The notes: generated from the sequence alone by a model not told the origin. Positions 22,997-56,275 are shown, counted from the first letter of the stretch. The stretch is 64,000 bases of DNA from Candidatus Onthoplasma sp. (GCA_965646995.1 CBFGBH010000007.1:4585-68584), one strand, 5' to 3'. Translations and numbers: made by a program.

Positions 22997-23112
22997 TATT
23001 TTGTAAAAAATTAGACTTTTTTGTACAAAATAATTTAACAATGATTTTTCGATATGATAATTTATTAATCGTCACGTTTTTTGTGGCGATTAATTTGTAT
23101 TGTAGGGGAGAT

Positions 23113-23481
23113 ATGAAATTAAAGTCAGAATATTGTAAGAAAGTCGTGCATTCGCATTATTTTATAAGCACAATGTTGAGAAAGTTGGGTATCACTAATA
23201 AATACATCGGATATTTTTATCTTATTGAGATTTTGGATCTTCTTATAAATGAGGGACTGATTGTCAATTCGTTTTCTGGACAGGTCTATCCTAGAATAGC
23301 CTGTAGATATAATAGGAGTGACCATACTATCGAGCGAGATATTAGACATATTATCAGTATTTTGTGGGACGAAAAATTGAAGAAGATATTATCTCCATTT
23401 TGTTTTTACACTAATAGACCGAGATGTCGTCAGTTCATCTACGCTGTGAAAGACTATATATTAAATGAATTAAATTATTGA
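23113..23481 (+). CDS. Stand-alone Spo0A C-terminal-type DNA-binding domain protein (no receiver domain)
   Basis: LGITNKYIGYFYLIEIL, VYPRIACRYNRSDHTIERDIRHIISILW and RPRCRQFIYAVKDYI align with the Spo0A effector domain. Start taken at ATG 23113 after GGGGAG. Confidence 0.65.
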   Translation: MKLKSEYCKKVVHSHYFISTMLRKLGITNKYIGYFYLIEILDLLINEGLIVNSFSGQVYPRIACRYNRSDHTIERDIRHIISILWDEKLKKILSPFCFYTNRPRCRQFIYAVKDYILNELNY

Positions 23482-27056: not shown

Positions 27057-27251
27057 ATGGACGAAGTGGTTGGTGCCTATATCGAATATTTATCGAGTTT
27101 GAAGGAAATCACGAAACCATCAATGCCAAAATTCAATCTCTCGGCATATACTGACAATGAATACGTTAGTGCAATTTCATCAGTATTAAAAGAGTATGAA
27201 TGTATTGATGATTATAATCTAACCCTTCAATATTTGAAAGGAGAGAAATAG
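27057..27251 (+). CDS. Small acidic protein in the antitoxin position upstream of mazF (non-canonical candidate antitoxin)
   Basis: AGGAGA RBS, 64 aa, D/E/Y-rich, with no RHH- or AbrB-type basic N-terminus. Ends 11 nt before mazF. Confidence 0.45.
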
Positions 27252-27262
27252 ATTATACTACT

Positions 27263-27613
27263 ATGATGGAAGTTAATCGTGGCGACATATATTTTGCAGA
27301 TCTTAGTCCAGTAGTGGGTAGCGAACAGGGTGGTGTTCGTCCCGTTTTGGTCGTGCAGAATGATGTGGGCAATAAATATAGTCCTACAGTGATTATCGCG
27401 GCGATTACGAGCCAGTTAACCAAAGCGAAACTCCCTACACATATTGAGCTTGATAAAGATAGCTATAATTTACCTAAGGATAGTGTAGTTTTGCTAGAGC
27501 AGATTCGCACGCTAGACAAACGTAGATTGAAAGATAAATTATCCACAATAGATAGTCAGACCATGCAAAAAGTAGACATTGCTATCATGATTAGTTTAGG
27601 CATTACAGCATAA
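27263..27613 (+). CDS. mazF: MazF/EndoA-type mRNA interferase toxin
   Basis: [29 protein letters not shown]...KLPTHIEL...[17 protein letters not shown] is very close to B. subtilis EndoA (NdoA), from memory. Confidence 0.9.
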
Positions 27614-27697
27614 AGGAATTGTGTAATTTTGTACAAAATTACTTTACATTCTTTTTTTTATATGATATACTTATATTATCATAAAAGAGAGTAACAA

Positions 27698-28771
27698 ATG
27701 ACAGAGATCGAATTAAATCAACTAAGCATATTCGCCTTGAGAGAACTTGCTAGACAGATAGGAGTACCATCTCCGACTAGCAAGAAAAAGGATGAATTAA
27801 TCCAAGCTATCTTGGATATCAATACAGGGAAGAAAAAACCATATATCGCCAAGACCAAGCAGGGTCGCCCGCCTAAAAATTATGGTTATCCTTTTACGGA
27901 TGTCATAAATAATAATGTCAAACCTATTTATAGTGCAACTGTACTAAATCAGGCCACAGAGTTTAGAGGATGTATGTCTGAATTTATCTCTGGATATTTA
28001 GAGATTGTGAGCAACAATTTAGCCTATGTCTGCTCATATGAAGGATTTGAATGTCATCGAGTTATTATTCCATTTTCGTTAATAGTAGAATATAATTTAA
28101 AGAATGGAGATTTTTTACATGTGCGTGTGATTAATACTCCGACCAAAATTGAAGTTGGTGAAGTACTCAATATCAATAATTGTTCGATTAAGAAATTTAA
28201 TCCGAATCGAAAGGATTATTATGAATATCGTCATGAGATGAGCGAAGATAATATCTCATTTGCAGATGAAGATATGTCCAAATTCGATATAAAGTTTGGC
28301 GAGAGTGTGTATCTTTATGGCAAAAATAATAGAGAGAATACTGAATCGATTATTAATATGCTTAACAAATGTGAAGTAGATAAAAAATTATATGTCAATA
28401 TATCTATAGCAGAGAAGAATAAATGTCTCATAGAGAAATTAAATGGAGCAGAGATGTTCGTTGCCAATTTCACAGATGACATCGATACAGCTAAGCGTGT
28501 AGTACTATTAGCTGCCGAGCGAGCTAAGCGACTATTTGAATCAGGAGTAAGCGTAGTAGTTGCGATAGATGATGTATTGTCTCTTGCAGGAATCGACACT
28601 CAAGATTTACCAGTCACTAAGAATCTTCTTTCGCTTGCCAAATCCGCGCCAGACGCAGGCTCAGTATCTGTGTTTGCTGTAATTTCTTCGAATAATGGTA
28701 TCAGCCTATTTGAGAAACTAGCAGATAGACGACTTAAAGTACTAAATCGTGAATTATTTATTATGGATTAA
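27698..28771 (+). CDS. Rho-like protein with intact N-terminal/RNA-binding region but degenerate ATPase motifs (pseudo-Rho)
   Basis: Rho_N-like LSIFALRELARQIGVPSPTSKKKDELIQAIL and a CSD-like segment ...EYNLKNGDFLHVRV. The Walker A position reads YLYGKNNRENT. VVVAIDDVLSLA aligns to [10 protein letters not shown]. 357 aa. Confidence 0.6.
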   Translation: MTEIELNQLSIFALRELARQIGVPSPTSKKKDELIQAILDINTGKKKPYIAKTKQGRPPKNYGYPFTDVINNNVKPIYSATVLNQATEFRGCMSEFISGYLEIVSNNLAYVCSYEGFECHRVIIPFSLIVEYNLKNGDFLHVRVINTPTKIEVGEVLNINNCSIKKFNPNRKDYYEYRHEMSEDNISFADEDMSKFDIKFGESVYLYGKNNRENTESIINMLNKCEVDKKLYVNISIAEKNKCLIEKLNGAEMFVANFTDDIDTAKRVVLLAAERAKRLFESGVSVVVAIDDVLSLAGIDTQDLPVTKNLLSLAKSAPDAGSVSVFAVISSNNGISLFEKLADRRLKVLNRELFIMD

Positions 28772-28952: not shown

Positions 28953-31900
28953 ATGGCAGATACTAAAGTGAAATTAACTAAACAATTTAATATCATTAGT
29001 GCGACAGAAGCTTCATCTAAACCACTAAGAGATATATTTATAATAGATACAAAGGGAATGGCTCATCGAACTAGTGATTTATATTTTAAAGCAGATAATA
29101 ATTCGCCTACTCGTAAAATTAAAACTTTTTCAGATTTGCAGAATGCCATTAAAGGATATATCTATACTAGTAATAATGACGCATCTCAAATTAAAATAGT
29201 AGAGCAGACTAGGGGATCGATGAAATCATATTATTCCACTCGTAATTATGAGATACCAGCATCATTTGAGTCGGATTCTGTCAATGGTGCGGACAGGACG
29301 ATTACAAGAGGAAGAACGACGACAATTTTACATGATACAGTTCCTGTGGGCATAAAGAGAACTCTAGAATTGAAACGAATACCGTCTGTATCTGATTTTG
29401 AGAAGGACGAAGCTTATTTTTCGAAAACCGAATACTTCATGGTAAAAGCGGGCGGTCGCTGGATGAGAGTTCATCGCTCAGAGATAGGTATTTATAATGG
29501 TATTGAGTTTATTAGCTTAGACCATGCTAAGAATAAAATTAAATCATTTGAACAATTAAATAATGTGGATATCAGTGTGACTCCTATAGTCCTTTCTCAT
29601 AAATTAGGTGGTTATACTCTTGAAGAGATAGGCTTAGAGTCAGCTCTTACAGTTGGACGAATATTAGACTATGAGAGAATAAATACTTACACAATGACTC
29701 GAGAGACAATTGAGAGGAAAGAAGATGGTACAGAAGCGGTTAAAGCAAATCTATCTAAGCCACTAGATAGAGAACTATCCGAGCATATATTCGTTCCGCC
29801 AGTAGACAATGCAGAGGCTACTCTGAATGTCAAGACTTTCTCATATGACGAGAATGGTAATGTAATTAAGGTAGTGCTTTCAGACGGCACTACTCGTCTA
29901 GTCTCACTAGACAAATTATTAGAAGTAGATATAGACGGTAAGGCTACAGATAAGACGATTGATTTGAGTGGTACATCCGATGAGATTAAAGATAAATTAT
30001 CTAAATTAGTAGGCAAGCAGGTGGCATTCGAATTGGATGGCAAGAAATATATATCCGCTCCACTAACTTACGAGCAGACAATAATGCGTTATACTAGCAA
30101 TAAGTATATGAACGCTACCAATGTCGCATTTGACGAGAAAGCTACTGACCCTACATATCTTCGTCTGAAAAATGGCAAATATGTAGAGGAGCAAAAAGCC
30201 ATTCGCCCAATTTGCTATGATTATGTTAAGAATGAAGATTATGAGAAATTATCTTCTTCTGAGAGGAAACGTTGTCGTGGTTTAGTTATCTTAGATAGCG
30301 GAGAAACTCGAATTGTAGATATATCAGAGTTGAGGTCTAAATATAGCAGTTTGGCTCCTAGTAGAAAGAGTATCATCACCCCATCTACCAAGGCAATCGC
30401 TGACTGTGATGTCATCCAGACTACCAATGTGGCAGGGGCAAAAACTCATAAATGTACACTGCTTAATAATCCAGATAGTACACCTGTATTTTCTACAGAA
30501 GATGAGAAAAATGATGCTATTAAATCAGCCTGCGAGACCTTCCTAGCTGGTTATAAGAGTAATGACCTTAATTCACACTATCAACTAGACGAAGTATTAG
30601 TTGATGGCAAATTTGAGCCGTTATCCGATCAAGGACAGAGATACCAAATTACAGATACATATTCTCGTCCATTCCATGCTAAAGAGAATGATGATTACAA
30701 GTATTTAAAGAAATCTCCATTAGTTATTAACAATGGTAAACTCGAGGGTGGAGTTCGATACGACACAGCCGGTGCTATTAAGGATTTTTATAAGTCATGG
30801 GGAGCTTTCTTTGGTGGTATCATGGCATTCACTTTTAGTGTGGGTGGTATTATCACAGCATTAGCAGCTCCAGTCCTACTAGGTGGTGCTATGGCAGCAC
30901 TCGTAGTATCAGCGATAGTTGGGCTTATATACCACGCGATCAAAGGTCGTAGGATGAATAGTATGTTCCGTAAGGGCAAGAAATTCGCAGATACCGCACA
31001 GTTACAGAGGGATGGCATTGAGACTGAAGTGAAAGCCGAACTGCAAGACATCCTTAACCAAGTGAAAGACCTTACTAATACTTCAGAGAAAGGTGCTTTG
31101 AGTGAAATTCAAAAAGAATTAGTAAATGTTACAACAGAAATAGAGCAATTAGAAGCAGAGCAAACTAGACTTAATAGTCTAGTCCTACACTTAGATACAG
31201 ATGTTACTAATGCTGAAACTAAGTTAAATGAAGATATAGCTATGCGAAATACATTAGATACTCAATTTACAGATCTATCAAATGAAATGTTGAGTAAAGG
31301 TTGGACAGCTGATGATTTTGCTAGAATTTTATCTTTAACAGCTGATGATTTAGATTTAGCTTTGACAAATTCCAATATCGCACTATCCACAGCCCAATCA
31401 GAGCAGGCGGAGGCTCAGAGTGACTTAGATACTATTACCACTCTACAAGGGGAATTACAGGCACTCAGTCGTGAATTTGGTGGAAAAACACCTGCTGAAT
31501 TAAGAGCGGTACTTAAAACTGTCAGAGAACCAAAAAGAAAAGTCCCAGTCAACACCGAGTCCGAATTCTTAAAAATAAAGAAAGCAAAAGTCGATGCTAA
31601 AAAGACAGCATATGAAAAATACATAGAAGAATTAGCCCGTATCAGTAGATATGAAGAATTACTCGGTCTAGGTCTAGATGGGCAGAGAGCTAATGCAGAA
31701 GCTAGATTAGCCAGTGCTAATACTTCTATGGCTACAGCTCAGGATGCTAAAGACAAGGCAGAGAATGAGCGCGAATATAGAAGAATTAAAGAAGAGTTAG
31801 ATGTTCAAGATAATGTCGTAGATAGTTCAAGAGACAGGCTACAAGAAGCAAAAAATGCAGTGTCTGATAATAATGAAAAGTTACAAGAAACAATCGCTAA

Positions 31901-33149
31901 ACTATCAAAAGCCCAAGAAAAGCACAAAGATTTAAAAGCGCAAAAGGAAGATTATCGTACCGCTATCATGGAGCGAATAGATGCTACTTGTCAGAAAATT
32001 CTTGAGACCTCTCCTACAGAATACCATGCAGAGTTCACAGTGACAGACGGCAAAGCTGAGATTAATGACAGCAATGCAGCCTTAGCTCAAGAGTATATGC
32101 AGAAATATCGAGCAGCAGAGAAGAAACTCAAAGAAGTTGAGAAACGACATAAAAAAGGCAATGCCACCGACGATGAGTTAAATAAAGCAAAAGATGAACT
32201 AGAAGTGTTGAAAAACTACCACGCTTCTACCAGTGAATCGAAAGATAACGATTATCAGAAACGACTCACGATGGCGAAACGCTATAAGGCTTTCATCGAA
32301 CTCAAGACTTTCGGTACAGAAGATGAGAAGAAAGCACTCAAAGACTATGATTTTAATACAAATACAGGCGAAATCGTATATACTGGTAAATTAACAGGTA
32401 AGAAGAGCAAAGAGCGTCAAACTGAATTAAAATCGAAATTATCAAAAGCTCTTACACTAATAGACAAAGCAATAGAAGGTAAGCTCCCAGACGACACACC
32501 AAGAGCGGAAGGTAAAGTCGGAGAGATTAAGACTTTCACTAATGAGGATGAGTTGAAAGATTCACTCGTTACCAATAAGGACGAAGATGTCAAGATGCCT
32601 ACCTTAGAGAAAACCGAAGATAAGGAAGACGAAAAGACAGAAGAAGACGAAAAATCAGCAGATAAAGAAGCCGAAGACGAGAAAGAAGTTGAGAAAACCG
32701 ACGAAACAGCAGCAAGGTCAGGACTAGACAAAGAACTTAGCAGTACTGCTATCAAGGCTATTGAATACATGTATACTAAACCTAAATATATTGATAAGAA
32801 ATATATTAAGATGATGCTTACTTTAATTACTACATATACTACATTAGGGCATTTGAAATTAAAGGGTAATAAACTGACCAAAGAGCTTGAGACAATTTAT
32901 AAAGATATTAATGATTTCTTGCGTGCTAATGCTCATGTTCTTAGTGATGTGGCTAAAACTTATGATGAAAGGACAGAAAAAAGCAAAGAATATCCATTCA
33001 TGGACGCAAAACTCTATATAAGTATAGTTAAAGGTGCTAATAAATATACAAACTATCATGCAGATCTTAAAAACAAAGTAAAAGTAGGCGATCGTGTACT
33101 AGGCAAAAAACCTAAATCTACAGACTTAGATAGAGAAGAGACTCTCTAG
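28953..33149 (+). CDS. Giant (1398 aa) protein: ~615-aa N-terminal region of unknown fold, central Gly-rich two-TM hairpin, ~700-aa coiled coil with an acidic segment
   Basis: Single uninterrupted ORF with RBS AAGAGG. The TM hairpin WGAFFGGIMAFTFSVGGIITALAAPVLLGGAMAALVVSAIVGLIY lies at about 30795-30945. Heptad-like E/K/L/Q-rich sequence follows. No signal peptide. Confidence 0.8.
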   Translation: MADTKVKLTKQFNIISATEASSKPLRDIFIIDTKGMAHRTSDLYFKADNNSPTRKIKTFSDLQNAIKGYIYTSNNDASQIKIVEQTRGSMKSYYSTRNYEIPASFESDSVNGADRTITRGRTTTILHDTVPVGIKRTLELKRIPSVSDFEKDEAYFSKTEYFMVKAGGRWMRVHRSEIGIYNGIEFISLDHAKNKIKSFEQLNNVDISVTPIVLSHKLGGYTLEEIGLESALTVGRILDYERINTYTMTRETIERKEDGTEAVKANLSKPLDRELSEHIFVPPVDNAEATLNVKTFSYDENGNVIKVVLSDGTTRLVSLDKLLEVDIDGKATDKTIDLSGTSDEIKDKLSKLVGKQVAFELDGKKYISAPLTYEQTIMRYTSNKYMNATNVAFDEKATDPTYLRLKNGKYVEEQKAIRPICYDYVKNEDYEKLSSSERKRCRGLVILDSGETRIVDISELRSKYSSLAPSRKSIITPSTKAIADCDVIQTTNVAGAKTHKCTLLNNPDSTPVFSTEDEKNDAIKSACETFLAGYKSNDLNSHYQLDEVLVDGKFEPLSDQGQRYQITDTYSRPFHAKENDDYKYLKKSPLVINNGKLEGGVRYDTAGAIKDFYKSWGAFFGGIMAFTFSVGGIITALAAPVLLGGAMAALVVSAIVGLIYHAIKGRRMNSMFRKGKKFADTAQLQRDGIETEVKAELQDILNQVKDLTNTSEKGALSEIQKELVNVTTEIEQLEAEQTRLNSLVLHLDTDVTNAETKLNEDIAMRNTLDTQFTDLSNEMLSKGWTADDFARILSLTADDLDLALTNSNIALSTAQSEQAEAQSDLDTITTLQGELQALSREFGGKTPAELRAVLKTVREPKRKVPVNTESEFLKIKKAKVDAKKTAYEKYIEELARISRYEELLGLGLDGQRANAEARLASANTSMATAQDAKDKAENEREYRRIKEELDVQDNVVDSSRDRLQEAKNAVSDNNEKLQETIAKLSKAQEKHKDLKAQKEDYRTAIMERIDATCQKILETSPTEYHAEFTVTDGKAEINDSNAALAQEYMQKYRAAEKKLKEVEKRHKKGNATDDELNKAKDELEVLKNYHASTSESKDNDYQKRLTMAKRYKAFIELKTFGTEDEKKALKDYDFNTNTGEIVYTGKLTGKKSKERQTELKSKLSKALTLIDKAIEGKLPDDTPRAEGKVGEIKTFTNEDELKDSLVTNKDEDVKMPTLEKTEDKEDEKTEEDEKSADKEAEDEKEVEKTDETAARSGLDKELSSTAIKAIEYMYTKPKYIDKKYIKMMLTLITTYTTLGHLKLKGNKLTKELETIYKDINDFLRANAHVLSDVAKTYDERTEKSKEYPFMDAKLYISIVKGANKYTNYHADLKNKVKVGDRVLGKKPKSTDLDREETL

Positions 33150-33741: not shown

Positions 33742-35106
33742 ATGGGAAATTTTGATAAAATAGTGAATTTATGTAAAAATAGGGGATTTATATTCCCTGG
33801 TAGTGATATATATGACGGACTAGCGAATACATGGGATTACGGTCCGGTCGGTGTGGAACTAAAGAATAATATCAAGCGTGCATGGTGGAAGAAATTTGTG
33901 CAGGAGTCGCATAATTCATTCGGCGTGGATGCAGATATCTTCATGAATAGTAGAGTATGGGATGCAAGCGGTCATACAGCGGGCTTTTCTGATCCTAAAA
34001 TGGATTGTAAGTCGTGTAAGACTCGTCATAGAGCGGACAATCTCATCGAAGCACATTCGAAAGGAAATGTGAACCCAGACCTTATGACAAACGAGGAGAT
34101 GGAGAAATACATCGCAGAGCATAAGGTTGCATGCCCGAAATGTGGTAAATGCGACTGGACTAATATTCGTAATTTCAATCTTATGTTTTCCACTTCTCGT
34201 GGAGTTACAGACGAGAGCCAAAATCTAATCTATCTTCGACCAGAGACCGCACAGGGAGAGTTTGTAAATTTTTTAAATGTACAGCGCAGTATGCGTGCGA
34301 AAGTACCATTCGGTATAGCTCAGATTGGTAAAGCGTTCCGTAACGAAGTGACTCCGGGGAATTTCACTTTCCGTACTATTGAGTTTGAGCAGATGGAGCA
34401 CCAGTGGTTCTGTAAGGCAGACACTAGCATGGACTTTTACGCCGAGTATAAGAAGAAAGCAATGGATTTCTTACTAGCTTTAGGTTTCAGTTCTGAGCAT
34501 TTACGCTATCACGACCATGATAAACTCGTATTCTATGCCAAAGCAGCGTGCGATATTCAGTATCTGTATCCAATAGGTTGGGAAGAGCTCAATGGTATAC
34601 ATCATCGTGGAGATTGGGATTTGTCTCGTCATCAAGAGTTTAGTGGGAAATCAATGCTCTATCTAGATCCTTTCACTAACGAGAAATATATTCCGAATGT
34701 AATAGAGTACTCAATCGGTTGCGATAGACTTACTTTGGCGGTTTTATGTGAAGCATATGACGAAGAGAAATTAGAGGGCGGAGACACCCGTGTCGTGATG
34801 CACTTCCACCCAAGCATTGCGCCATATAAAGTAGCAATTCTACCATTACAGAAAAATCTAAGTGAGAAAGCTAACGAAGTTTACTCAAAGCTCAGCAAAC
34901 ATTTCATGGTAACATACGATGAAGCAGGTAGCATAGGTAAACGCTATCGCCGTCAGGACGAGATAGGTACTCCTATGTGCGTGACAATAGATTTCGATAC
35001 ATTAGAGAACAATACTGTTACAGTTCGTGACCGTGACACAATGGAGCAAATTCGTCTCCCAATCGACGAATTATTCGACTATATCAATAAAAAAATAGAG
35101 TTTTAA
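33742..35106 (+). CDS. glyQS: Glycine--tRNA ligase (single-chain class II)
   Basis: NRGFIFPGSDIYDGLANTWDYGPVGVELKNN, YLRPETAQG and FRNEVTPGNFTFRTIEFEQME. Confidence 0.95.
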   Translation: MGNFDKIVNLCKNRGFIFPGSDIYDGLANTWDYGPVGVELKNNIKRAWWKKFVQESHNSFGVDADIFMNSRVWDASGHTAGFSDPKMDCKSCKTRHRADNLIEAHSKGNVNPDLMTNEEMEKYIAEHKVACPKCGKCDWTNIRNFNLMFSTSRGVTDESQNLIYLRPETAQGEFVNFLNVQRSMRAKVPFGIAQIGKAFRNEVTPGNFTFRTIEFEQMEHQWFCKADTSMDFYAEYKKKAMDFLLALGFSSEHLRYHDHDKLVFYAKAACDIQYLYPIGWEELNGIHHRGDWDLSRHQEFSGKSMLYLDPFTNEKYIPNVIEYSIGCDRLTLAVLCEAYDEEKLEGGDTRVVMHFHPSIAPYKVAILPLQKNLSEKANEVYSKLSKHFMVTYDEAGSIGKRYRRQDEIGTPMCVTIDFDTLENNTVTVRDRDTMEQIRLPIDELFDYINKKIEF

Positions 35107-37265: not shown

Positions 37266-37505
37266 ATGTCAATAGATTTTTATGATTATTTGGAGATAAA
37301 ATTGAAAGGTTTAAAGCTTATTAGAAAGCAAAAAAATCTTAATCAACAAAAAATAGCCATAGACTTAAATATATCAAGAGAGGCATTGTCTTACTATGAG
37401 AATGGGAAAAGAGAGCCGAGTCTTAGATTATTGATAGACATGTCTAAATATTTCAATGTAAGCATTGATTACTTAATAACAGGTGAAGAATTTAAGAAAA
37501 GATAA
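37266..37505 (+). CDS. XRE-family HTH regulator
   Basis: QQKIAIDLNISREALSYYENGKREPSLRLLIDMSKYFNVSIDYLI. ATG 37266 has no RBS; the TTG at 37302 after GGAGA is an alternative start (67 aa). Confidence 0.8.
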   Translation: MSIDFYDYLEIKLKGLKLIRKQKNLNQQKIAIDLNISREALSYYENGKREPSLRLLIDMSKYFNVSIDYLITGEEFKKR

Positions 37506-47656: not shown

Positions 47657-47678
47657 AGAGTGTAAAACTACACTCTTT
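47657..47678. terminator. Bidirectional terminator shared by acpS and ileS
   Basis: AGAGTGTA-loop-TACACTCT with A/T runs on both sides. It overlaps the last ileS codons. Confidence 0.6.
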
Positions 47679-50600
47679 TCATTTTTATTGTGACTTTTTC
47701 ATCTCCGATTTCAGTAGTTTGCTTGAATTCGGAATTGTCAAGTTTTTTGATTTCTTTTGCTAGCAACTCGGATTTGATTTTATCGCTAAATTTATTTAGT
47801 ATTTCAGTCAAATCATTTCCGTCAGTTATGAATTCAAGATAGATTCTATCTTCTACATTGAAGCCAGCATCTTTTCGCATTACTTGTGCCGAGCGGATTA
47901 GTTCACGAGCTAGTCCTTCTAGCATCAATTCACGATTGATAGTGACATCTAGTACTACAGTGATATCGCCCTCGCTCGCTATCACATATTCGCTCTTAGG
48001 TTTAGTAGCGATAGAGAATAGCTCACTAGGTAGACTCTTAAATTCACCCACGGTCACGAAGCCACTCTTATAACCTGCTACCATGAGACGCATCTCGTCA
48101 TCACTAGCACTTACTAGTAGATTCTTCACTTTCTGTACATCGCCTTTAAGCACCGCACCTGCACGCCTAAAGTCTAGCACTAGATATTCGTCATTGAAGA
48201 TTGAATTATCACTCTCCATTACAACATCTTTTATGTTAAGTTCACTCTCGATAATGTCACGATAGATTTTGACAGCACTAGCTACTTCGTCATTTCCATT
48301 GACATATAGAGTCTTGAGCGGTTGCTTTACTTTAATTTGATTTTCGTTTCTTAACTTACTTGCCATAGTGAATATATTTCTCACAATGTCAGTCTTTTTG
48401 GTTAATCCGGTGTCTTTTACTTTATATTCAGCGATTGTATAGCCATTTAGAGCGACACTTTCACTTGCATTTTTGTCCAATTCACGCACTGTATTTTGCC
48501 ACAAATATTCGCTTATGAAAGGAATGATAGGGAACATTACCATAGCGATATTTTTGATACAATAATTTAGGCAGAAATATGCATTCAATGTGTCAGTGTT
48601 ATTCTCACTCTTATAGAAACGCCTACGATTGTTACGAATATACCAGTTGGTAAGCTCGTCAACTAGCACTTCAAAATCTTTAGCGACAGTACCGAAATTT
48701 TCATGACTATATGCGTCGAACGAGTCACGAGTAAATTCGTTCACACGATTGATGAGCCACTTGTCCATAAAGGTAAGCTCACTCTCTTTAGGTGTGTAAC
48801 CTGTCAAATCAGGTTTGTCAATATATGCATAGGTATTTAGGAATATATAAGCATTCCATAGTCCTAACAATTTTCTCTTCACTTCGTCACAAGTATCACG
48901 ACCGAATTTTACATCATTCACGAGTGGAGTAGCGACGAAATTATATCGAATGACATCGGCACCAATCTCAGCGAATGCGGTATCTAACGGAATGTTATTC
49001 GGACTAGATTTAGATAATTTCTTTCCGTCCTGAGCGAGTAGCATTGGGGTAGTACCGATACGCTTGTATGGAGCTTTTCCAGTCAGCACCACACTCATGA
49101 CTAGTAGCGAGTAGAACCATAGTCTCACTTGCTCCTTTCCCTCTATTACACATTCGACAGGGAAGTTTTTATTGAAGAAATCTTTGTCAGAAAAATATTT
49201 TTTAGTACTAAATGGCGTGATACCGGCATCTAGCCAGCAGTCGCCGACATCTTTGATACGAGCAACTTTAGCACTGCAATGTGGACAATTAATCTTGATT
49301 TTATCGATATATGGTCTATGAATATGTGGCATAGCATCCACTTCCGCAGGACTAGATAGTTTCTTGAGTTCATCAATAGAGCCAACTACAGTCACATGTC
49401 CGCAATTCTCACAAGGGTAGAAAGGCAATGGTATTCCATAATATCTCGAGCGAGAGATAGCCCAATCGCCCATGTTATTGAGCCAGTCGAGCATACGCTT
49501 TTTCATGAAGTCAGGATTAAATTCGACATCATCTATAGCTTTAATCAACTGCGGACGAAGCTCATCCATCTTGATTACCCACTGGTCAACTAATCTAAAT
49601 AGTAGTGGATGCTTACATCTCCAGCAGTGCGGATAGCTGTGAGTATATTTGTGTATATAGTAGGTCTTATTTCGCTCTTTCATGAGTTCGAATACAAAAT
49701 CACGAGTCTCATCGGTATTCGCATTTCTTCCGGCGAATACACCAAAGTTTTTGTAATAATTACCTGCCTCGTCAATAGGGCAGATACTAGGTAACCCCAA
49801 TTTTTTGCCCAACTCAAAGTCCGCATCTCCACATCCCGGAGCAATATGGACAGCTCCAGTACCTTCATCTGCACTGACTTCATCCCAAGCGACTATCTTA
49901 TGCTCGAAGTTCTGTTCTTCTAGTTCAGGGAAACAGGTCTCATATGTTAAACCTACCAGCTTGCTTCCTTTCTTGGTTTCAAGTACACTTGCGACATCAT
50001 CTTTTAGTACTTTCATAGCATTCTTGCATACAATTACATTTCTATCACTTGATTTTAGTTTAACGATATTGTACTCGAGCTCAGGATTGACCGCAATCGC
50101 CACATTAGATGTCAGTGTCCATGGAGTAGTAGTCCAGACTAGCATATCGTTATTAGTATTCTTGATAGGACAACGGAAGAAGATAGCGAGACAGGTCACG
50201 CTCTTGTATGCGTCATCATCCGTCATCTCGTGGTCTGATATACTCGTTCCACAGCGAGTACACCAGCGCATGATACGATGACTATTTGCTATCCAGTTTT
50301 TTTCTTGACACTTCTTTAAGAAATGCCATATAGCAGTGATATTCTCGTCACTATTGGTATAATAACTATCATCCCAGTTCATCCATTGACCGAGACGAAT
50401 TGATGATTCAGTCTGAGAGGCAGAGTATTTGTCCACCGTCTCCATACATTTCTTCACGAATTTATCCATGCCATACGCTTCAATTTCGCGCTTACTATCC
50501 AGTCCCAGTTCGCCTTCGACTCTAAGCTCGACAGGCAAGCCATGTGCATCAAATCCGTTCTGATAATGCTGGTCGCATCCGCATAACGCATGGAATTTAA

Positions 50601-50805
50601 TCATCGCATCTTTGAATGTCCTACCATACGCATGGTGTAGCCCCATATTGTAGTTGGCAGTGATAGGACCATCTAGGGTAGCGAAATATTTACCAGTCTT
50701 TTTATTCTTGGTCTTTAATTTATTGAAAATATCATTTTCCTGCCAAAATTTCAGTACACCTTCTTCCATTTTGACATAATCTAGATTACCTTGTTCTTTC
50801 TTCAT
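47668..50805 (-). CDS. ileS: Isoleucine--tRNA ligase (long, 1045-aa form)
   Basis: LHHAYGRT (HIGH-type), KLSKSS (KMSKS-type), the CP1 editing region and Cys clusters. Confidence 0.95.
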   Translation of the reverse strand: MKKEQGNLDYVKMEEGVLKFWQENDIFNKLKTKNKKTGKYFATLDGPITANYNMGLHHAYGRTFKDAMIKFHALCGCDQHYQNGFDAHGLPVELRVEGELGLDSKREIEAYGMDKFVKKCMETVDKYSASQTESSIRLGQWMNWDDSYYTNSDENITAIWHFLKKCQEKNWIANSHRIMRWCTRCGTSISDHEMTDDDAYKSVTCLAIFFRCPIKNTNNDMLVWTTTPWTLTSNVAIAVNPELEYNIVKLKSSDRNVIVCKNAMKVLKDDVASVLETKKGSKLVGLTYETCFPELEEQNFEHKIVAWDEVSADEGTGAVHIAPGCGDADFELGKKLGLPSICPIDEAGNYYKNFGVFAGRNANTDETRDFVFELMKERNKTYYIHKYTHSYPHCWRCKHPLLFRLVDQWVIKMDELRPQLIKAIDDVEFNPDFMKKRMLDWLNNMGDWAISRSRYYGIPLPFYPCENCGHVTVVGSIDELKKLSSPAEVDAMPHIHRPYIDKIKINCPHCSAKVARIKDVGDCWLDAGITPFSTKKYFSDKDFFNKNFPVECVIEGKEQVRLWFYSLLVMSVVLTGKAPYKRIGTTPMLLAQDGKKLSKSSPNNIPLDTAFAEIGADVIRYNFVATPLVNDVKFGRDTCDEVKRKLLGLWNAYIFLNTYAYIDKPDLTGYTPKESELTFMDKWLINRVNEFTRDSFDAYSHENFGTVAKDFEVLVDELTNWYIRNNRRRFYKSENNTDTLNAYFCLNYCIKNIAMVMFPIIPFISEYLWQNTVRELDKNASESVALNGYTIAEYKVKDTGLTKKTDIVRNIFTMASKLRNENQIKVKQPLKTLYVNGNDEVASAVKIYRDIIESELNIKDVVMESDNSIFNDEYLVLDFRRAGAVLKGDVQKVKNLLVSASDDEMRLMVAGYKSGFVTVGEFKSLPSELFSIATKPKSEYVIASEGDITVVLDVTINRELMLEGLARELIRSAQVMRKDAGFNVEDRIYLEFITDGNDLTEILNKFSDKIKSELLAKEIKKLDNSEFKQTTEIGDEKVTIKMKRV

Positions 50806-50818
50806 GAATTCTCCTTTT

Positions 50819-50843
50819 AAAAAATGTCAGCGGAATGCTGACA
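50819..50843 (-). terminator. Leader terminator/attenuator abutting the ileS RBS
   Basis: Minus strand: TGTCAGC-ATTCC-GCTGACA followed by TTTTTT and directly by AAAAGGAG and ATG. Confidence 0.55.
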
Positions 50844-50933
50844 CACCTACAGCAAACACACTATCTACAGTTTGACAGGTAGAATGCAGTAGCAAATAAT
50901 GACTAATCCTAATATGAAACTAAACATACCTAT

Positions 50934-50962
50934 ATTATATATAAGCAAAGAGCATAAGTCAA
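50934..50962 (-). promoter_or_regulatory. ileS promoter
   Basis: Minus strand: TTGACT, 17 nt, TATAAT. Confidence 0.6.
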
Positions 50963-50967
50963 ATGAT

Positions 50968-51186
50968 TTAATATATATCTACTAAACCAACAATATAATC
51001 AGACGGAACATTATAGAATTTACAAATAGTCACCAAAACATCACAAGGTAAAATACGAGTACCTTTTTCGTAATAAAAATAAGTGCTTGGCGAAATATTA
51101 ATTAATTTTGTCAAACCTCTTATACTAAGTTTTTCTCTATTTCTTAGTTCTTTTAATCTTTTACTGATAATATTGCTCATAATCAT
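50968..51186 (-). CDS. XRE-family single-domain HTH protein (third of three tandem paralogues)
   Basis: KRLKELRNREKLSIRGLTKLINISPSTYFYYEKG...CDVLVTICKFYNVPSDYIVGL. Confidence 0.8.
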   Translation of the reverse strand: MIMSNIISKRLKELRNREKLSIRGLTKLINISPSTYFYYEKGTRILPCDVLVTICKFYNVPSDYIVGLVDIY

Positions 51187-51401
51187 TAATCAATATCTGA
51201 CAAACCCAAAAGATAATCTGCAGACACATTGAAATACTTACATATACTTATTAATATGTCAAAAGATGGTTTGCATTTGCCAGTTTCATAATTCGAGTAA
51301 GTTCCTGTACCAATATTTAATGCTTTTGCAACATCGCGAGTAGTAAGGTGTTTACTTACTCTTAAAGTTTTTAATTTTTCACTGATAGATTTTTCTTTCA
51401 T
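51186..51401 (-). CDS. XRE-family single-domain HTH protein (second of three)
   Basis: KLKTLRVSKHLTTRDVAKALNIGTGTYSNYETG...ISICKYFNVSADYLLGL. The stop overlaps the next start (TAATG). Confidence 0.8.
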   Translation of the reverse strand: MKEKSISEKLKTLRVSKHLTTRDVAKALNIGTGTYSNYETGKCKPSFDILISICKYFNVSADYLLGLSDID

Positions 51402-51420
51402 AAGTTTAATACCATATCAT

Positions 51421-51621
51421 TTAAATAAAATCTACGAGTCCTAAAAGGTAATCTGCCGAAGTATTAAATAATTTACAAATATTATATAAGACATCACAAG
51501 GCATTTTACTTATTCCTCTTTCATAATTGTTATAAGTGTCTTTTGTAAGATTTAATAGTTTTGCCATTTCTCTAATACTTAATTTTTTGTTCTTTCTTAG
51601 TTCCTTTAATCTTTCATTCAT
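51421..51621 (-). CDS. XRE-family single-domain HTH protein (first of three)
   Basis: RLKELRKNKKLSIREMAKLLNLTKDTYNNYERG...YNICKLFNTSADYLLGL. Confidence 0.8.
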   Translation of the reverse strand: MNERLKELRKNKKLSIREMAKLLNLTKDTYNNYERGISKMPCDVLYNICKLFNTSADYLLGLVDFI

Positions 51622-51747
51622 ATAATAATTCTAGCATAATAAATAAAATTTTAAATAATGTATAATATTTTATGACAAAACTGTTGACAAATATCAATTT
51701 AAATGCAATAATGAAAATGTCTAAATATTTATGACAAAGGAGTATTT

Positions 51748-52029
51748 ATGAAATTAGAAAGTGTATTTGAAATTTGCATGAACTCAGGTATGTTGAGTTT
51801 GGACTGGGATGAAAAGGAATCTATTCATTTATCAGAGCTAAACGAAAGGGAGAAGCTTTTACTTGATAGTCTAGATGATGAGCAGAAAAAACTATTTCGA
51901 TCTTTCAGATATGATTTAGTCTGGCATATGTTCAGTGTGAGAGACGAAGAGTGTATGGACACCTTTCGCTTAGGTTTCAGAATCGGTAAAGAATTGCAAA
52001 AAGCAGATGACGAAGAAGAGATGATTTAG
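51748..52029 (+). CDS. Small acidic hypothetical protein divergent from the XRE array
   Basis: AAGGAG RBS, 93 aa, no motif recognised. Its 3' end overlaps the ung stop by 4 nt (convergent). Confidence 0.55.
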   Translation: MKLESVFEICMNSGMLSLDWDEKESIHLSELNEREKLLLDSLDDEQKKLFRSFRYDLVWHMFSVRDEECMDTFRLGFRIGKELQKADDEEEMI

Positions 52030-52688
52030 ATTTTCCAATCAATCGGCTCGATACCATGTGCCGATAGAAATTCATTACATTTAGAGAAGTGTCTGCATCC
52101 GAAGAACTTGCTAGCTGAGAATGGGCTAGGGTGGGCGGACTGTAGTACCAAATGATTAGGGTTAGTTAGTAGTGGCAAGAATGACTTAGCATGATTGCCC
52201 CATAGCATGAATACGATAGGTTGATTTTGTTCGTTTAGTATTTTGATTATCTCACGAGTGAAGGTGTGCCAACGCTCGTTACTGTGGCTGGCAGGGAGAT
52301 GCTCGATTACCGTCAGACTGGTGTTTAAGAGTATCACGCCCTGCTTAGCCCAAGCGGTCAAATCGGTCGACTCGCTCATTTCGATTCCAAGGTCGGAATG
52401 AATCTCTTTGAAGATATTTTTTAGACTTGGTTGTGGTGTGCCGTTATGACAGCTAAAGGCTAATCCGTCCGCCTGACCTTTCGTGTGATATGGGTCTTGT
52501 CCTATTATCACAACTTTCACATTTTTGATAGGTACAGCATTCAGTGCATTAAAGATTTTTTCTTTCGGTGGAAAGATTGTTTTTGTCGCATATTCGCTTT
52601 CGAGCCAGGAGAAAAGTTCACGCTTGTATTCAATAGGAAAGCGGTCTTTTAACATTGCGCTCCAGTCATCATTAAGTACATAATTCAT
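52026..52688 (-). CDS. ung: Uracil-DNA glycosylase
   Basis: VVIIGQDPYH, GQADGLAFS and HPSPFSA motifs. Confidence 0.95.
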   Translation of the reverse strand: MNYVLNDDWSAMLKDRFPIEYKRELFSWLESEYATKTIFPPKEKIFNALNAVPIKNVKVVIIGQDPYHTKGQADGLAFSCHNGTPQPSLKNIFKEIHSDLGIEMSESTDLTAWAKQGVILLNTSLTVIEHLPASHSNERWHTFTREIIKILNEQNQPIVFMLWGNHAKSFLPLLTNPNHLVLQSAHPSPFSASKFFGCRHFSKCNEFLSAHGIEPIDWKI

Positions 52689-52852
52689 ACAAATATTATA
52701 ACAAAATTCTACAGATAAGTAAATTATTATATTACTTATTTTTTGGATGCTGTATAAGAAATTTTTTTACATGTCGTTACTTAATCATGCTTGACATAAA
52801 AATTTTCAAAGAATCAATTTATGTTGAAAAATTAAAAAAATAATAAAAAACG

Positions 52853-54127
52853 CTAATTTTTAGCGAGTTTTATATGTTTTTTTATCAAATTTAGACAATT
52901 TTCTGCTTTTTTTCTATCCTTATGTTCTACCATAATGCGTAGTACAGGCTCTGTGCCACTAGGTCGGATTATTATTCTGAAATTTTCTTTTTCGTATTTT
53001 TTTATTAAATTTTTTAGTTCATTTGTTAGCTCAAATTCACTCTCTAGTTTAATATTTTCCATTAGTCTATGATAGTCGGTATAATCGTCTAATAATTCAT
53101 CTAGATTCTTTTTGGTGGCTTGCATTATATTCATTATAATGATAGAGACGAGTAGTCCGTCTCCGGTATTAGTATATTTTTTTATTACGATATGCCCCGA
53201 GCTTTCTCCGCCTATACTAGCGTTTTCTTCTTTCATTTTTAGTAGGACATTTTTGTCTCCGACAGTCGCACGCACGAGTGTGATATTATTTTTTGCTAGA
53301 GCCTTTTCGATGGCAGTATTAGTATAAATCGTGCCCACGATTTTGTCTTTAGAATTGAGATAATATTTAGATAAAATATACAATAACTTATCTCCATTTA
53401 TTATTTGTCCAGACTCACTTATCATATGGACTCTATCGCCGTCTCCGTCTAGGCTGACAGCTATTGTTTTCGACTTAATACACATTAGTCGGAGTAGTTC
53501 GATATTCGTACAACCGCAGTTTCTATTTATATTCGTGCCATCAGGTTTTGAGTAAATTAAATTAGCATTTTTAAATACTAATTTTGCTATCTCACTCGTG
53601 CCACCATTCGCGCAATCTATGATACAATGTTGACTGCATTTTTTGATACTTTTTATATATTCTATATACGAATTAATGAGAGTGTGTTTGTCTAATAGTC
53701 TAACATAATTAGCATTATGTTTTTCTCTCGCATTAGAGATTAAATTTGATAATTCTTCTTCTGATTCAAAAGAGATTTTTTCGCCCTTAGCATTGAAAAA
53801 CTTTATCCCATTATATTCGCTTGGATTGTGTGATGCGGATATCATCATTCCTAGCGGATAGTTGAATTTTCTAGTGAGATAGGCGAGAGCAGGGCTAGAG
53901 CAAATACCTACATTATGTATTTCAATTCCGTGCTTTAGTAGTACACTAGCGCAAATATTTAGTATATAGTCACTACTGATTCTTGAATCATTGCCTACGA
54001 TTAATAAAGGCTTTAGATTATGTATTTGATAGAATGAGACGAGTGCTTTGGCAACTTTTAAAATTAATTTTTTATCTAAACCATTATCGATTACACCTCT
54101 AATGCCGTCAGTACCGAAATATTTCAT
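52853..54127 (-). CDS. glmM: Phosphoglucosamine mutase
   Basis: YFGTDGIRG, ISASHNPSEYNGIKFF, DGDGDR and GGESSGH. Confidence 0.9.
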   Translation of the reverse strand: MKYFGTDGIRGVIDNGLDKKLILKVAKALVSFYQIHNLKPLLIVGNDSRISSDYILNICASVLLKHGIEIHNVGICSSPALAYLTRKFNYPLGMMISASHNPSEYNGIKFFNAKGEKISFESEEELSNLISNAREKHNANYVRLLDKHTLINSYIEYIKSIKKCSQHCIIDCANGGTSEIAKLVFKNANLIYSKPDGTNINRNCGCTNIELLRLMCIKSKTIAVSLDGDGDRVHMISESGQIINGDKLLYILSKYYLNSKDKIVGTIYTNTAIEKALAKNNITLVRATVGDKNVLLKMKEENASIGGESSGHIVIKKYTNTGDGLLVSIIIMNIMQATKKNLDELLDDYTDYHRLMENIKLESEFELTNELKNLIKKYEKENFRIIIRPSGTEPVLRIMVEHKDRKKAENCLNLIKKHIKLAKN

Positions 54128-54382
54128 ATATGTTCATATGTGAATATTGTATTTTTTGTGATACCACTATAATAATATACCTTATATATTATATATTAGT
54201 AGAAATATCAGACTAGATTTGTGTTTTTAATGCTTCGGTTGTTTATGTAGTCAAGATGTTTACTCAAATTTACTACGCTCAATGAATATTTCTTTTTCAA
54301 ACCGATTTATTAAAAGACTGACAAAATCAGCCAGAATTTTAGTTGCATTTTTTATAATCATATCTTAGAATATTATAGAAAC

Positions 54383-55183
54383 ATGTATACAGTTCCGCCC
54401 AAGAGTTTTTTTATAGGTAGCTTAGAGATTAGCTTTTACGGCATAATCATGGCTGTTTCTATGTTCGTTGGAGTAATACTGGCGTGCAAGCTAGCCAAGA
54501 AGCGTGGTATCAAGAGTGATGATATTCTATTGCTTGCGCTTATTGTTCTACCATTTGCAGTGCTGGGAGCGAGAATATATTATTGTCTATTCCACAACGC
54601 TGATTATACTTTTTTGGATTTCTTTAATATCAAAAAAGGCGGTCTAGCAGTCCTAGGCGGTGTGATAGGTGGCGTGATAGGTATACTTATATTCGCACTT
54701 ATTAAGAAGAATTTTAGAATCATCATTGATTTACTAGATATATGTGCTCCATGTCTTATCTTGGGTCAGGGGATAGGTAGAATTGGCTGTTTCTTCTCGC
54801 AATGTTGTTACGGAGTAGAAGTGACTAATCCGAATCTACAATGGTTCCCATTCTCTGTGCTTATTGAGAGTTATGAAGGTTCAGGCGTTTATACATGGCA
54901 TTTGGCGACACAGTTGTATGAAAGTCTCTGGAATTTCGTAGGAGTCGCTCTACTACTTTTGGTGTATTTCCGTTCGGATACGAAGTCTGACACTGTGGCG
55001 AGTTATCTACTATGGTATGGAGTAGGTAGGACTATTATAGAGGGTTTTAGGGGAGATTCTTTATTCTTAGGCTCTAGTAGTATTCGAGTATCGCAAGCTT
55101 TAAGTATTATTTTGGTTATACTAGGTACAATTATCATAGTTTATAATTTTATTAGGAAGAAAAAGAATGGGCAAAAAATCTAA
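54383..55183 (+). CDS. lgt: Prolipoprotein diacylglyceryl transferase
   Basis: ISFYGIIMA, GARIYY, GGLAVLGGVIGG and GQGIGRIGCFF..CCYG. Confidence 0.9.
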   Translation: MYTVPPKSFFIGSLEISFYGIIMAVSMFVGVILACKLAKKRGIKSDDILLLALIVLPFAVLGARIYYCLFHNADYTFLDFFNIKKGGLAVLGGVIGGVIGILIFALIKKNFRIIIDLLDICAPCLILGQGIGRIGCFFSQCCYGVEVTNPNLQWFPFSVLIESYEGSGVYTWHLATQLYESLWNFVGVALLLLVYFRSDTKSDTVASYLLWYGVGRTIIEGFRGDSLFLGSSSIRVSQALSIILVILGTIIIVYNFIRKKKNGQKI

Positions 55184-55664
55184 AATACTCTATATCTCAG
55201 TGTTGTTAGTCAATTTAGTATGTTTTATACTGGATCTTTTGCCTATCAATTTTCCGTTCTTTCGAATCAGTTTCGCCGTTTCATTAATGCTAATAGGTGT
55301 ATTACTGATTGTTCGAGCTTTTTCATTGAAAATCGACAGCAGTATGTTTTTCGGCATTACATTATTGCTTTGCGGAGTGCTGAATTTTGTGCTATACTTT
55401 GTTCAGACTAGATTAGGCGTGGATGCCAATCAATTCTGGCCGTACTATCTGCTAGCTCTATCATTTGCGAGTTTCTTTACAGGAATTTACTTTAAGGATA
55501 AATTGCAGTTTAAATTATGTGTTTTATTTTTAGGATTTGGTCTAATAATATTATTATTCGTACAGAATCTGATTGTATTATGGCTCATGATAGTACTTTT
55601 GGTAGTATGGTTTATACTATATTTCACAATAAATATCATTATGAATAAAAAAAGGAGAAAATAA
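55167..55664 (+). CDS. Polytopic membrane protein
   Basis: 165 aa with about 5 TM segments. Overlaps lgt by 17 nt and the next gene by 1 nt. Confidence 0.6.
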   Translation: MGKKSKILYISVLLVNLVCFILDLLPINFPFFRISFAVSLMLIGVLLIVRAFSLKIDSSMFFGITLLLCGVLNFVLYFVQTRLGVDANQFWPYYLLALSFASFFTGIYFKDKLQFKLCVLFLGFGLIILLFVQNLIVLWLMIVLLVVWFILYFTINIIMNKKRRK

Positions 55665-56275
55665 TGGACAAGAGAGAGAACGAGTTGCAAGCAGAGATTG
55701 CTAGACTTAGAGCAAAGGTGACCGAGCAAAAAGATACTATTTCAGCCCTGCATGTAACTATTGAAGATTACAAACAAAAAGAGCAATCAATATCTAGTGC
55801 CATTATAGCCAGCATGGAGCATGCTAATCAACTTGAAGCTAGCAGGAAGAAACTATATTCGCTTGATATTCAACGCAGTAGATTGATGTATCTTAGAATG
55901 GAGCAGATAATCAATGAATTGTACGCTAAATATCCGGAATTAACTAAAGATGTAGAACTAAAAGAGATGAGTGAACGTTTCAGGTCTATGGTATATGAAG
56001 GTCTAAAAGAGAAGAGCGCAAATTCGCTATCGTTTGATGTGAAGAAGGCTCCTGTAGTGGATGATCCAATCAAGAAACTATTACACAATATCATAGATTG
56101 TTTTGATAGCAAGAAAGTAAATGGCGGAGATTTAAAACGGGGTGGTCCTAGTGACGATTTAATCAACAATGCTTCAAAAAGTGGGTTTGATTTTAATGAG
56201 GCACTGCATCCTACTATGGGACTCGAAGAAATAATGAAAGTGTTTAATCTCGGAAATAAAGAAAGTCATAATTAA
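55664..56275 (+). CDS. Coiled-coil protein, weakly DivIVA-like
   Basis: An N-terminal heptad region, then YKQKEQSISSAIIASMEHANQLEA, which resembles the DivIVA central motif. The call is weak. Confidence 0.35.
   Translation: MDKRENELQAEIARLRAKVTEQKDTISALHVTIEDYKQKEQSISSAIIASMEHANQLEASRKKLYSLDIQRSRLMYLRMEQIINELYAKYPELTKDVELKEMSERFRSMVYEGLKEKSANSLSFDVKKAPVVDDPIKKLLHNIIDCFDSKKVNGGDLKRGGPSDDLINNASKSGFDFNEALHPTMGLEEIMKVFNLGNKESHN

Follow-up and report, generated by a model that had tools for sequence, protein, structure and literature searches.

A probable motor-dead descendant of rho, kept under selection in Candidatus Onthoplasma and its family

Introduction

What is left of Rho, and what is worth keeping, once its ATP motor has been dismantled? 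The usual view of Rho is of an obligate ATP-driven ring helicase, and the question is raised by a stretch of 64,000 nucleotides from Candidatus Onthoplasma sp. (GCA_965646995.1, CBFGBH010000007.1:4585-68584), hereafter the window, in which all positions are counted from the first letter, and which belongs to a source genome of 1.04 Mb that is 95% complete. It contains an uninterrupted open reading frame (ORF) of 357 amino acids (aa), running from ATG to TAA, which a first-pass annotation made from the sequence alone had read as a translocation-dead paralogue of Rho that retains the RNA-binding N-terminus. In the present analysis, this gene is very probably a selected, motor-dead descendant of the only rho of its lineage. 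A naturally motor-less Rho is retained throughout the family, which makes it a known fold in a new state.

Onthoplasma has been assigned to the reduced-genome family UBA1242 of the Christensenellales (GTDB; PMC12306168), and the 2025 description of these reduced UBA1242/Onthoplasma genomes does not mention Rho (PMC12306168). The 2024 survey 'Diversification of the Rho transcription termination factor in bacteria' found the ATPase domain of functional Rho proteins to be highly conserved, with no large deletions, and the N-terminus to be the variable part, as in Type 4, where the N-terminal domain is missing, and Type 2, with its insertion regions (PMC11347177). Our literature search found no paper on a motor-less or pseudo-enzyme Rho, or on Rho in UBA1242/Onthoplasma.

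A Rho homologue with a dismantled motor

As judged by sequence profiles and predicted fold, the 357-aa protein is a genuine Rho homologue. Its N-terminus matches Pfam Rho_N (PF07498) at 28.4-32.4 bits, above the gathering score of 24.9, while Rho_RNA_bind (PF07497) stays sub-threshold, with 16.8-20 bits against a gathering score of 27. The match to TIGR00767 is significant (E 2.9e-11) yet, at 42.9 bits, far below the curated cut-off of 509.45, and the same is seen with NF006886 (E 3.2e-10, about 40 bits, cut-off 315). A single-sequence phmmer search of the PDB returned Rho, with 8hsj as the best match (2.2e-6), and the sole match outside Rho, a DNA glycosylase with an E-value of 0.86, is at chance level. 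A profile made from an alignment of 119 homologues (the A1 profile) matched only Rho in the PDB, in about 11 distinct Rho sequences (8.5e-12 to 1.9e-8), over the OB region and the RecA core. The AlphaFold2 (AF2) model built on A1 has a mean predicted local distance difference test score (pLDDT) of 87.7, with disorder confined to residues 55-92, and the best 50 matches of a Foldseek search of the PDB with this model were all Rho chains (E 6.5e-17), the OB and RecA-like parts superposing at about 3.3-4.1 Å over about 290-300 residues. The full-length alignment with Rho and the RecA-fold scaffold that had been noticed in the sequence alone are thus borne out by profile and structure searches.

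Motifs were mapped in a MAFFT alignment with canonical Christensenellales Rho. The Walker A motif, GQRAMIVSPPKAGKTT in canonical Rho, has become GESVYLYGKNNRENTE; the P-loop, which in Rho ends in GK[TS], reads GESVYLYGKNNRENT, with Asn in place of the Lys. The degenerate Walker A at 28298-28342 in the first-pass annotation keeps its coordinates in this alignment, and an intact P-loop that had merely been misaligned is ruled out, as Asn stands at the position of the Walker A Lys. Where canonical Rho has VDERPEE, the catalytic Glu is replaced by Ile and the Arg valve by Ala, in agreement with the earlier reading of DERPEE as IAEKNK. In addition, 16 residues are deleted from the Q-loop, the R-loop segment is deleted, and the chain ends before the Arg-finger segment R-[IV]-F-P-A-I-D, about 75 C-terminal residues being gone, so that the deletion and truncation first suspected are both found. 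The structural AKRL-E-G helix survives, D291 and D292 are invariant among the 119 homologues, and the strand-loop-helix geometry of Walker A is kept in the AF2 model (strand 203-208, helix 211-224). Both Mg ligands, Walker A Thr and Walker B Asp, are retained. Because the motor motifs are gone, bar the Walker B Asp, and the C-terminus is missing, the protein cannot, on the evidence of its sequence, act as a translocase, and Rho-type ATP hydrolysis and RNA translocation would be impossible for it, as had been proposed.

In its architecture, the protein resembles canonical Rho (1pv4, 3ice, 8hsj, 7oqh; from E. coli, Thermus and M. tuberculosis), in which a Rho_N bundle is likewise followed by an OB domain and a RecA-like core, and it has in common with these the Walker B Asp, the AKRLVE-G helix, the GS-T strand and descent from rho. 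Unlike them, it is without the Walker A Lys, catalytic Glu, Arg valve, Q-loop, R-loop and Arg finger, the last ~75 residues, and RNP1. In length, it is similar to NF041509 paralog_Rho2, a short-form Rho of 360 aa and likewise a shortened Rho relative, but NF041509 is a paralogue alongside a full-length Rho, whereas there is no second Rho in the window genome. Membership of NF041509 was rejected, as the match reaches 23.6 bits against a cut-off of 628 and covers only a 47-residue stretch (251-297).

The only rho of the lineage

Canonical Rho was scored as TIGR00767 at or above its curated cut-off (509 bits). A genome-wide profile search found no canonical rho in the window genome, where the Rho derivative is the only Rho-like locus, and across the genus the cut-off is reached in none of 37 genomes. 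The family as a whole is no different, since not one of 81 genomes from 54 genera exceeds it, the top score being 197 bits; in other families of the order 17 of 24 genomes do, and a wider draw of the order has canonical Rho in 141 of 201 genomes. The same degenerate gene is widespread among the relatives, with an A1-profile homologue in 77 of the 81 family genomes and in 52 of the 54 genera, mostly in ORFs of 285-500 aa. Nearly all family genomes have a single Rho-like locus, and the few double matches are mostly two matches in one ORF or a gene split across contigs. A second, canonical Rho is also absent from twenty further genomes of ~1 Mb with intermediate forms. The gene descends from the lineage's own rho and is not, as the first-pass annotation had it, a paralogue. 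With no active Rho in the genome, genus or family sample, the decoy and anti-terminator roles then suggested fall as well.

Descent from rho

Across the family, TIGR00767 scores form a gradient from 197 to ~24 bits. In the members that have decayed least, the C-terminal subdomain is still there, as are the catalytic Glu and the Arg of the DERPEE segment (D/E-E-R-P-E-D/E), and the P-loop Lys has already gone (...PQNVDYS... in genome G306 and ...PKNVDYS... at locus L072). In the maximum-likelihood tree, all canonical Rho lie on one side of a branch with support 95/97, and the degenerate forms branch successively. Gene order adds to this, for at loci L070-L090 the degenerate gene is preceded by the same three genes, encoding ~170-190, ~220-230 and ~440 aa, that precede canonical rho in L076 and L092, and L018, an intermediate of another family in which Walker A is intact and the loops are deleted, has the upstream neighbour common to 13 canonical loci. 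Positional orthology is shown for other genera of the family and not for Onthoplasma, because in the latter the gene has moved from the ancestral neighbourhood. Here, it belongs to a genus-wide block of Tex, a Spo0A_C-only protein, a camelysin-like protein, SpmA, SpmB, a membrane protein, a DUF2383-like protein, MazF and the pseudo-Rho. The classical rho-rpmE linkage was dropped as positional evidence, since the ORF at 37266-37505, which is shared with canonical rho loci, encodes an XRE-type helix-turn-helix protein and not L31. An in-frame TAA as a sign of recent truncation in relatives was also dropped, because translation shows natural stops ending the matches.

Several related forms were met with besides the family series. 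L018:6324-7613(-), in genome G043, encodes a 429-aa Rho in which Walker A (AAANCGKT) and the Arg finger are intact, the DERPEE-type segment reads NARPEE, and the Q- and R-loops are deleted. In the family to which it belongs (the f8/f9 set), TIGR00767 E-values run from about 1e-159 down to 1e-38, which suggests an independent, ongoing decay of Rho; f8 and f9 look like separate cases. Some branches may have retained or re-formed a P-loop, as four relatives of 460-470 aa (P0180, P0203, P0213, P0233) have a compact G-E-[RK]-G-S-G-K-[TS] motif. In four species placed in the same genus (G021, G031, G003 and also G027), a divergent version of 433-448 aa replaces the standard form (L015:6427-7728(-), L016:6017-7363(+), L017:6403-7737(-)). 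It is without Rho_N and GRPPK, and has instead a new N-terminal region of ~170 aa with a GADLGIYNYKP motif; the OB domain that follows is of the Rho type (35.9 bits with Pfam Rho_RNA_bind), and the RecA core is dead. The copy in G031 lies just upstream of GAPDH-MgsA-rubrerythrin genes, which in the window are found ~9 kb downstream of the Rho derivative.

Selection and the conserved N-terminal module

The gene is kept intact by purifying selection, though it is fast-evolving. Intact ORFs of constant length are found in more than 100 independent clusters from metagenome-assembled genomes (MAGs), and the whole-gene pairwise ratio of nonsynonymous to synonymous substitution rates (dN/dS) is 0.04-0.28, with 0.06-0.07 in the two closest pairs, in which dS (~0.15) is unsaturated. 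Among the 119 homologues, 31 positions are invariant and ~35 nearly invariant. Across the genus, identity of the Rho derivative is 36-57%, compared with 80-94% for neighbouring genes. Constraint is distributed unevenly along the protein, being strongest in the N-terminal module of Rho_N and GRPPK (residues 1-60; mean pairwise identity 0.69, dN 0.007-0.056), weaker in the RecA-like part (residues 199-357; 0.49, dN 0.08-0.20), and weakest, among the folded domains, in OB (residues 96-160; 0.38, dN 0.06-0.32).

The same pattern extends beyond the genus. An exhaustive profile search of 1.84 billion representatives gave 2086 relatives, 99 of them below 1e-30. Among the 136 best-scoring representatives, roughly 25 of which are short fragments, 122 are without a Walker A-type GK[TS], 130 without a DERPEE-type segment and 134 without the Arg-finger pattern, and ~90 keep a K-x-G-R-P-P-type motif. 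Over ~100 family-level clusters, conservation along a longer stretch is confined to the block L--l-IfeLR--AR--GV-sPT--KK-eLI--i--I--G---P---k-k-GRPpK, with the small structural motifs Lk-GD, akrl-e-g and gS-T also kept family-wide. K-x-GRPP occurs in most of the full-length family-level representatives (~100 in all), and G56, P58, P59 and K60 are invariant among the 119 homologues. Motifs of the RGRPPK type follow Rho_N in the canonical Rho of sister lineages too, and the N-terminal 57 residues are 54% identical to canonical Rho from a sister family. Residues 1-62 have a net charge of +6 and a pI of ~10.

The OB domain has fared differently. Its fold is kept, but RNP1 has changed from GYGFLR to NLAYVC, and its net charge is -3, where canonical relatives range from -1 to +3. 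The earlier claim of a preserved RNA-binding N-terminus therefore holds only in part: the Rho_N-type N-terminus is supported by a Pfam score above gathering and by AF2 helices, and its helices and KQGRPPK are strongly conserved, whereas the OB signature is lost and OB is the fastest-evolving of the folded domains. Rho_N is of the helix-extended-helix class, as are SAP, HeH and LEM domains. The module may be likened to eukaryotic chromatin proteins with SAP/HeH/LEM domains and AT-hooks, with which it shares the fold class, a trailing basic motif with a GRP core, and an overall basic character. The likeness is by analogy only, and a SAP-domain assignment of the N-terminus was rejected, since the Pfam matches are sub-threshold (E 0.065-0.22).

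A proposed role and its implications

In the explanation we propose, which as a whole, identity and mechanism together, we consider somewhat favoured, the rho of this lineage would have become a pseudo-enzyme with its motor dismantled. The function retained would sit in the near-invariant, basic Rho_N and KQGRPPK module, which is common to the active Rho of sister lineages. This module would bind RNA or AT-rich DNA, or putatively RNA polymerase or its cofactors, without ATP, while the OB and RecA-like domains would serve mainly as a folded scaffold, probably oligomeric and possibly ring-forming. Such ATP-independent binding by the N-terminal module on a RecA-like scaffold has the most support among the mechanisms considered, but is, as a mechanism read from sequence, tentative, and rather less assured than the identity of the gene.

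Several points weigh against this explanation. Long-branch effects could have shaped the ladder-like tree, and in the window's own genome the three ancestral upstream genes lie on a different contig. Rho-style RNA binding by the OB domain is doubtful, because the RNP1 residues are lost and the domain is slightly acidic. The polar set conserved in the genus at the old ATP site could make this part a ligand site, and not mere scaffold, and the binding partner and the oligomeric state are inferred only. Finally, the RNA evidence is weak, as it consists of contigs from an ambiguous library: a 268-nt contig identical to 27751-28018 came from a run labelled transcriptomic, a bona fide metatranscriptome had no match to the gene, and expression was for this reason dropped as a line of evidence.

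A broader possibility, which we regard as unlikely but worth stating, is that Rho in general carries an ATP-independent function in its N-terminal helix-hairpin-helix and GRPPK, for example as a tether to RNA polymerase or its cofactors, to nascent RNA or to AT-rich DNA, which alone would be worth keeping the gene for, family-wide, after loss of the motor. If this holds, the family is a natural series in which functions of Rho are separated, from nearly complete forms to fully motor-less ones, and represents an unrecognised class of Rho-derived, motor-less regulators of transcription or RNA in uncultured gut Clostridia. The graded intermediates would then be ready-made separation-of-function variants, and a partner of the module, if found, would bring to light an activity of Rho that does not need the motor and may operate hidden in the canonical protein too. 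Loss of the motor by steps, seen over more than 100 protein clusters while the N-terminal module stays near constant, is the reverse of surveyed Rho. The atypical Rho of that survey likewise show lineage-specific remodelling, with an insertion or linker between Rho_N and OB, but they vary the N-terminus, whereas the window protein keeps the N-terminus and has its ATPase dismantled (PMC11347177). For annotation, these genomes should be scored as being without Rho-dependent termination, despite their 'Rho-like' gene.

Alternative explanations

The remodelled ATP pocket might bind a nucleotide or another small ligand, which would make the protein a non-hydrolysing sensor or switch, or else an unorthodox nucleoside triphosphatase, and would put the centre of its function in the pocket. 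Consistent with this, the Walker A Thr and Walker B Asp are kept together with the invariant D291 and D292, the geometry of the loop is preserved in the AF2 model, and a polar set is found genus-wide around the old site (Y205, Y207, N211, N214, Y232, N234, S236, K240, N241, E252). However, the P-loop Lys and second Gly, catalytic Glu and Arg valve, as well as the Arg finger, have all disappeared, and the pocket motif is specific to the genus and not family-wide: the consensus at the old P-loop, GEN-Y-YG-NN--NT, is conserved within the genus only, as are Y232, N234, K240, D291 and D292 as members of this set. Moreover, dN in the RecA-like part is 3-10 times that of the N-terminus. We consider a ligand-binding role improbable, while giving it more than passing weight.

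A dedicated partnership with a neighbouring gene, with the Rho derivative either as the third component of a mazF toxin-antitoxin system or as a regulator of the 1398-aa gene that follows it, is very unlikely. The gene does lie where it was first described, between mazF, a PemK/MazF gene at 27263-27613 (Pfam E 4.4e-37) that ends 84 nt before it, and the 1398-aa ORF at 28953-33149, which starts 181 nt past it and has no significant match in a Pfam scan. While mazF is directly upstream in essentially all Onthoplasma loci, this adjacency is limited to the genus; in other genera mazF is absent from the locus, and the Rho derivative persists family-wide with no mazF nearby. A role as third component of MazEF was thus rejected, as there is no conserved co-occurrence or co-orientation with mazF outside the genus. 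Co-transcription with mazF is also not obligatory, because L035 and L040 have the mazF block inverted relative to the Rho derivative, which moreover has a promoter-like site of its own. As for the downstream gene, it has a single weak downstream relative in the genus, in L041 (25% identity over ~440 residues). Large ORFs flank the Rho derivative at 12 of 37 Onthoplasma loci, which is not above chance given a baseline of ~0.19 per 3-kb side in the window genome, and a giant-gene partnership in Onthoplasma was therefore rejected. Elsewhere in the family, 11 of 15 loci from other genera have a giant gene of 1890-2609 aa directly beside the Rho derivative, compared with none of 11 canonical rho loci, and this association looks real but may be inherited gene order; the giant genes are not co-transcribed with the Rho derivative, because they are convergent. 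Neither mazF nor the 1398-aa gene is a conserved functional partner.

It is still less probable that the gene is a rho pseudogene without function, in the course of being lost as the genome shrinks. The setting is a plausible one, with reduced genomes of 0.7-1.6 Mb (computed here; PMC12306168), a rho that has been wholly lost in some Christensenellales lineages, and a gene that changes much faster than its neighbours. Nevertheless, a relic of this kind is at odds with the intact, constant-length ORFs in over 100 independent MAG clusters, the low dN/dS, the 31 invariant and ~35 nearly invariant positions, the confident AF2 model, and retention of the gene in 52 of 54 genera.

Least probable of all is a Rho paralogue working alongside an active Rho as decoy, anti-terminator or poison subunit, for although its fold and N-terminal module are those of Rho and a dead subunit could in principle enter hexamers, there is essentially one Rho-like locus per genome, and no canonical Rho in its own, the 37 genus, the 81 family or the 20 intermediate-form genomes.

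Features of the locus and its surroundings

The features of the Rho derivative are collected in Table 1. A ribosome-binding site, AAAAGAGAG, lies upstream of its ATG.

Table 1. Coordinates of the Rho derivative, its predicted parts and its promoter-like site in the window.
Feature	Residues	Position	Strand	Basis or remark
Promoter-like site TTTACA-17-TATACT, TG extended -10		27643-27671	+	Consensus scan; inside the 84-nt gap after mazF
Probable motor-dead Rho derivative, whole ORF including stop codon		27698-28771	+	ORF call, profile searches, AF2, Foldseek
Rho_N helix-hairpin-helix bundle	1-47	27698-27838	+	Pfam Rho_N; AF2 helices 3-7, 11-21, 31-42
KTKQGRPPK, basic GRP-core (AT-hook-like) motif, nearly invariant	52-60	27851-27877	+	Conservation among homologues
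Variable linker, predicted disordered	61-95	27878-27982	+	pLDDT < 50 at 60-81; mean pairwise identity 0.27
Rho-type OB (cold-shock-like) domain	96-160	27983-28177	+	AF2 beta strands; Pfam Rho_RNA_bind sub-threshold
Former Walker A loop GESVYLYGKNNRENTE	201-216	28298-28345	+	Lys replaced by Asn, second Gly lost, Thr kept
Former catalytic segment, ISIAEKN for VDERPEE	235-241	28400-28420	+	Alignment
Walker B-equivalent strand VVVAIDDVLS	286-295	28553-28582	+	Asp kept
Shortened C-terminal RecA-like part	296-357	28583-28768	+	Q-loop with 16-residue deletion, R-loop deleted, Arg finger and C-terminal helical subdomain absent

Around the gene, the product of mazF is 79-94% identical across the genus, on a par with Tex, which is unusual for the toxin of a toxin-antitoxin pair. 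In the antitoxin position there is a 64-aa acidic ORF (27057-27251), which is detectable by BLAST in only a few relatives. Further upstream, 23041-23481 encodes a stand-alone C-terminal DNA-binding domain of Spo0A with no receiver domain (Pfam E 6.7e-20), and Spo0A_C homologues with 31-35% identity also occur near the degenerate Rho in L071, L074, L077, L080 and L084-L088.

On the downstream side, the slot between the Rho derivative and glyQS (33742-35106) is variable across the genus and is filled by large genes that are unrelated or barely related, of 1398 aa in the window, 1021 aa in L041 (25% similarity), and 1903-1962 aa in L036 and L050; the slot is occupied in L037, L044 and L065 by a rearranged block with homology to 47668-56275 of the window. 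The window's own genome has 24 ORFs of 1000 aa or more, the largest of 6819 aa, which together take up ~13% of the DNA and are striking at 1.04 Mb. In the other genera, the giant gene that abuts the degenerate Rho is found at L071:9219-17048(-), L084:9350-16102(-) and L067:204-7880(+), as well as in L074, L078, L080, L082, L086-L088 and L090; it encodes 1890-2609 aa or more, is usually convergent, and has a conserved C-terminal domain of ~160 aa.

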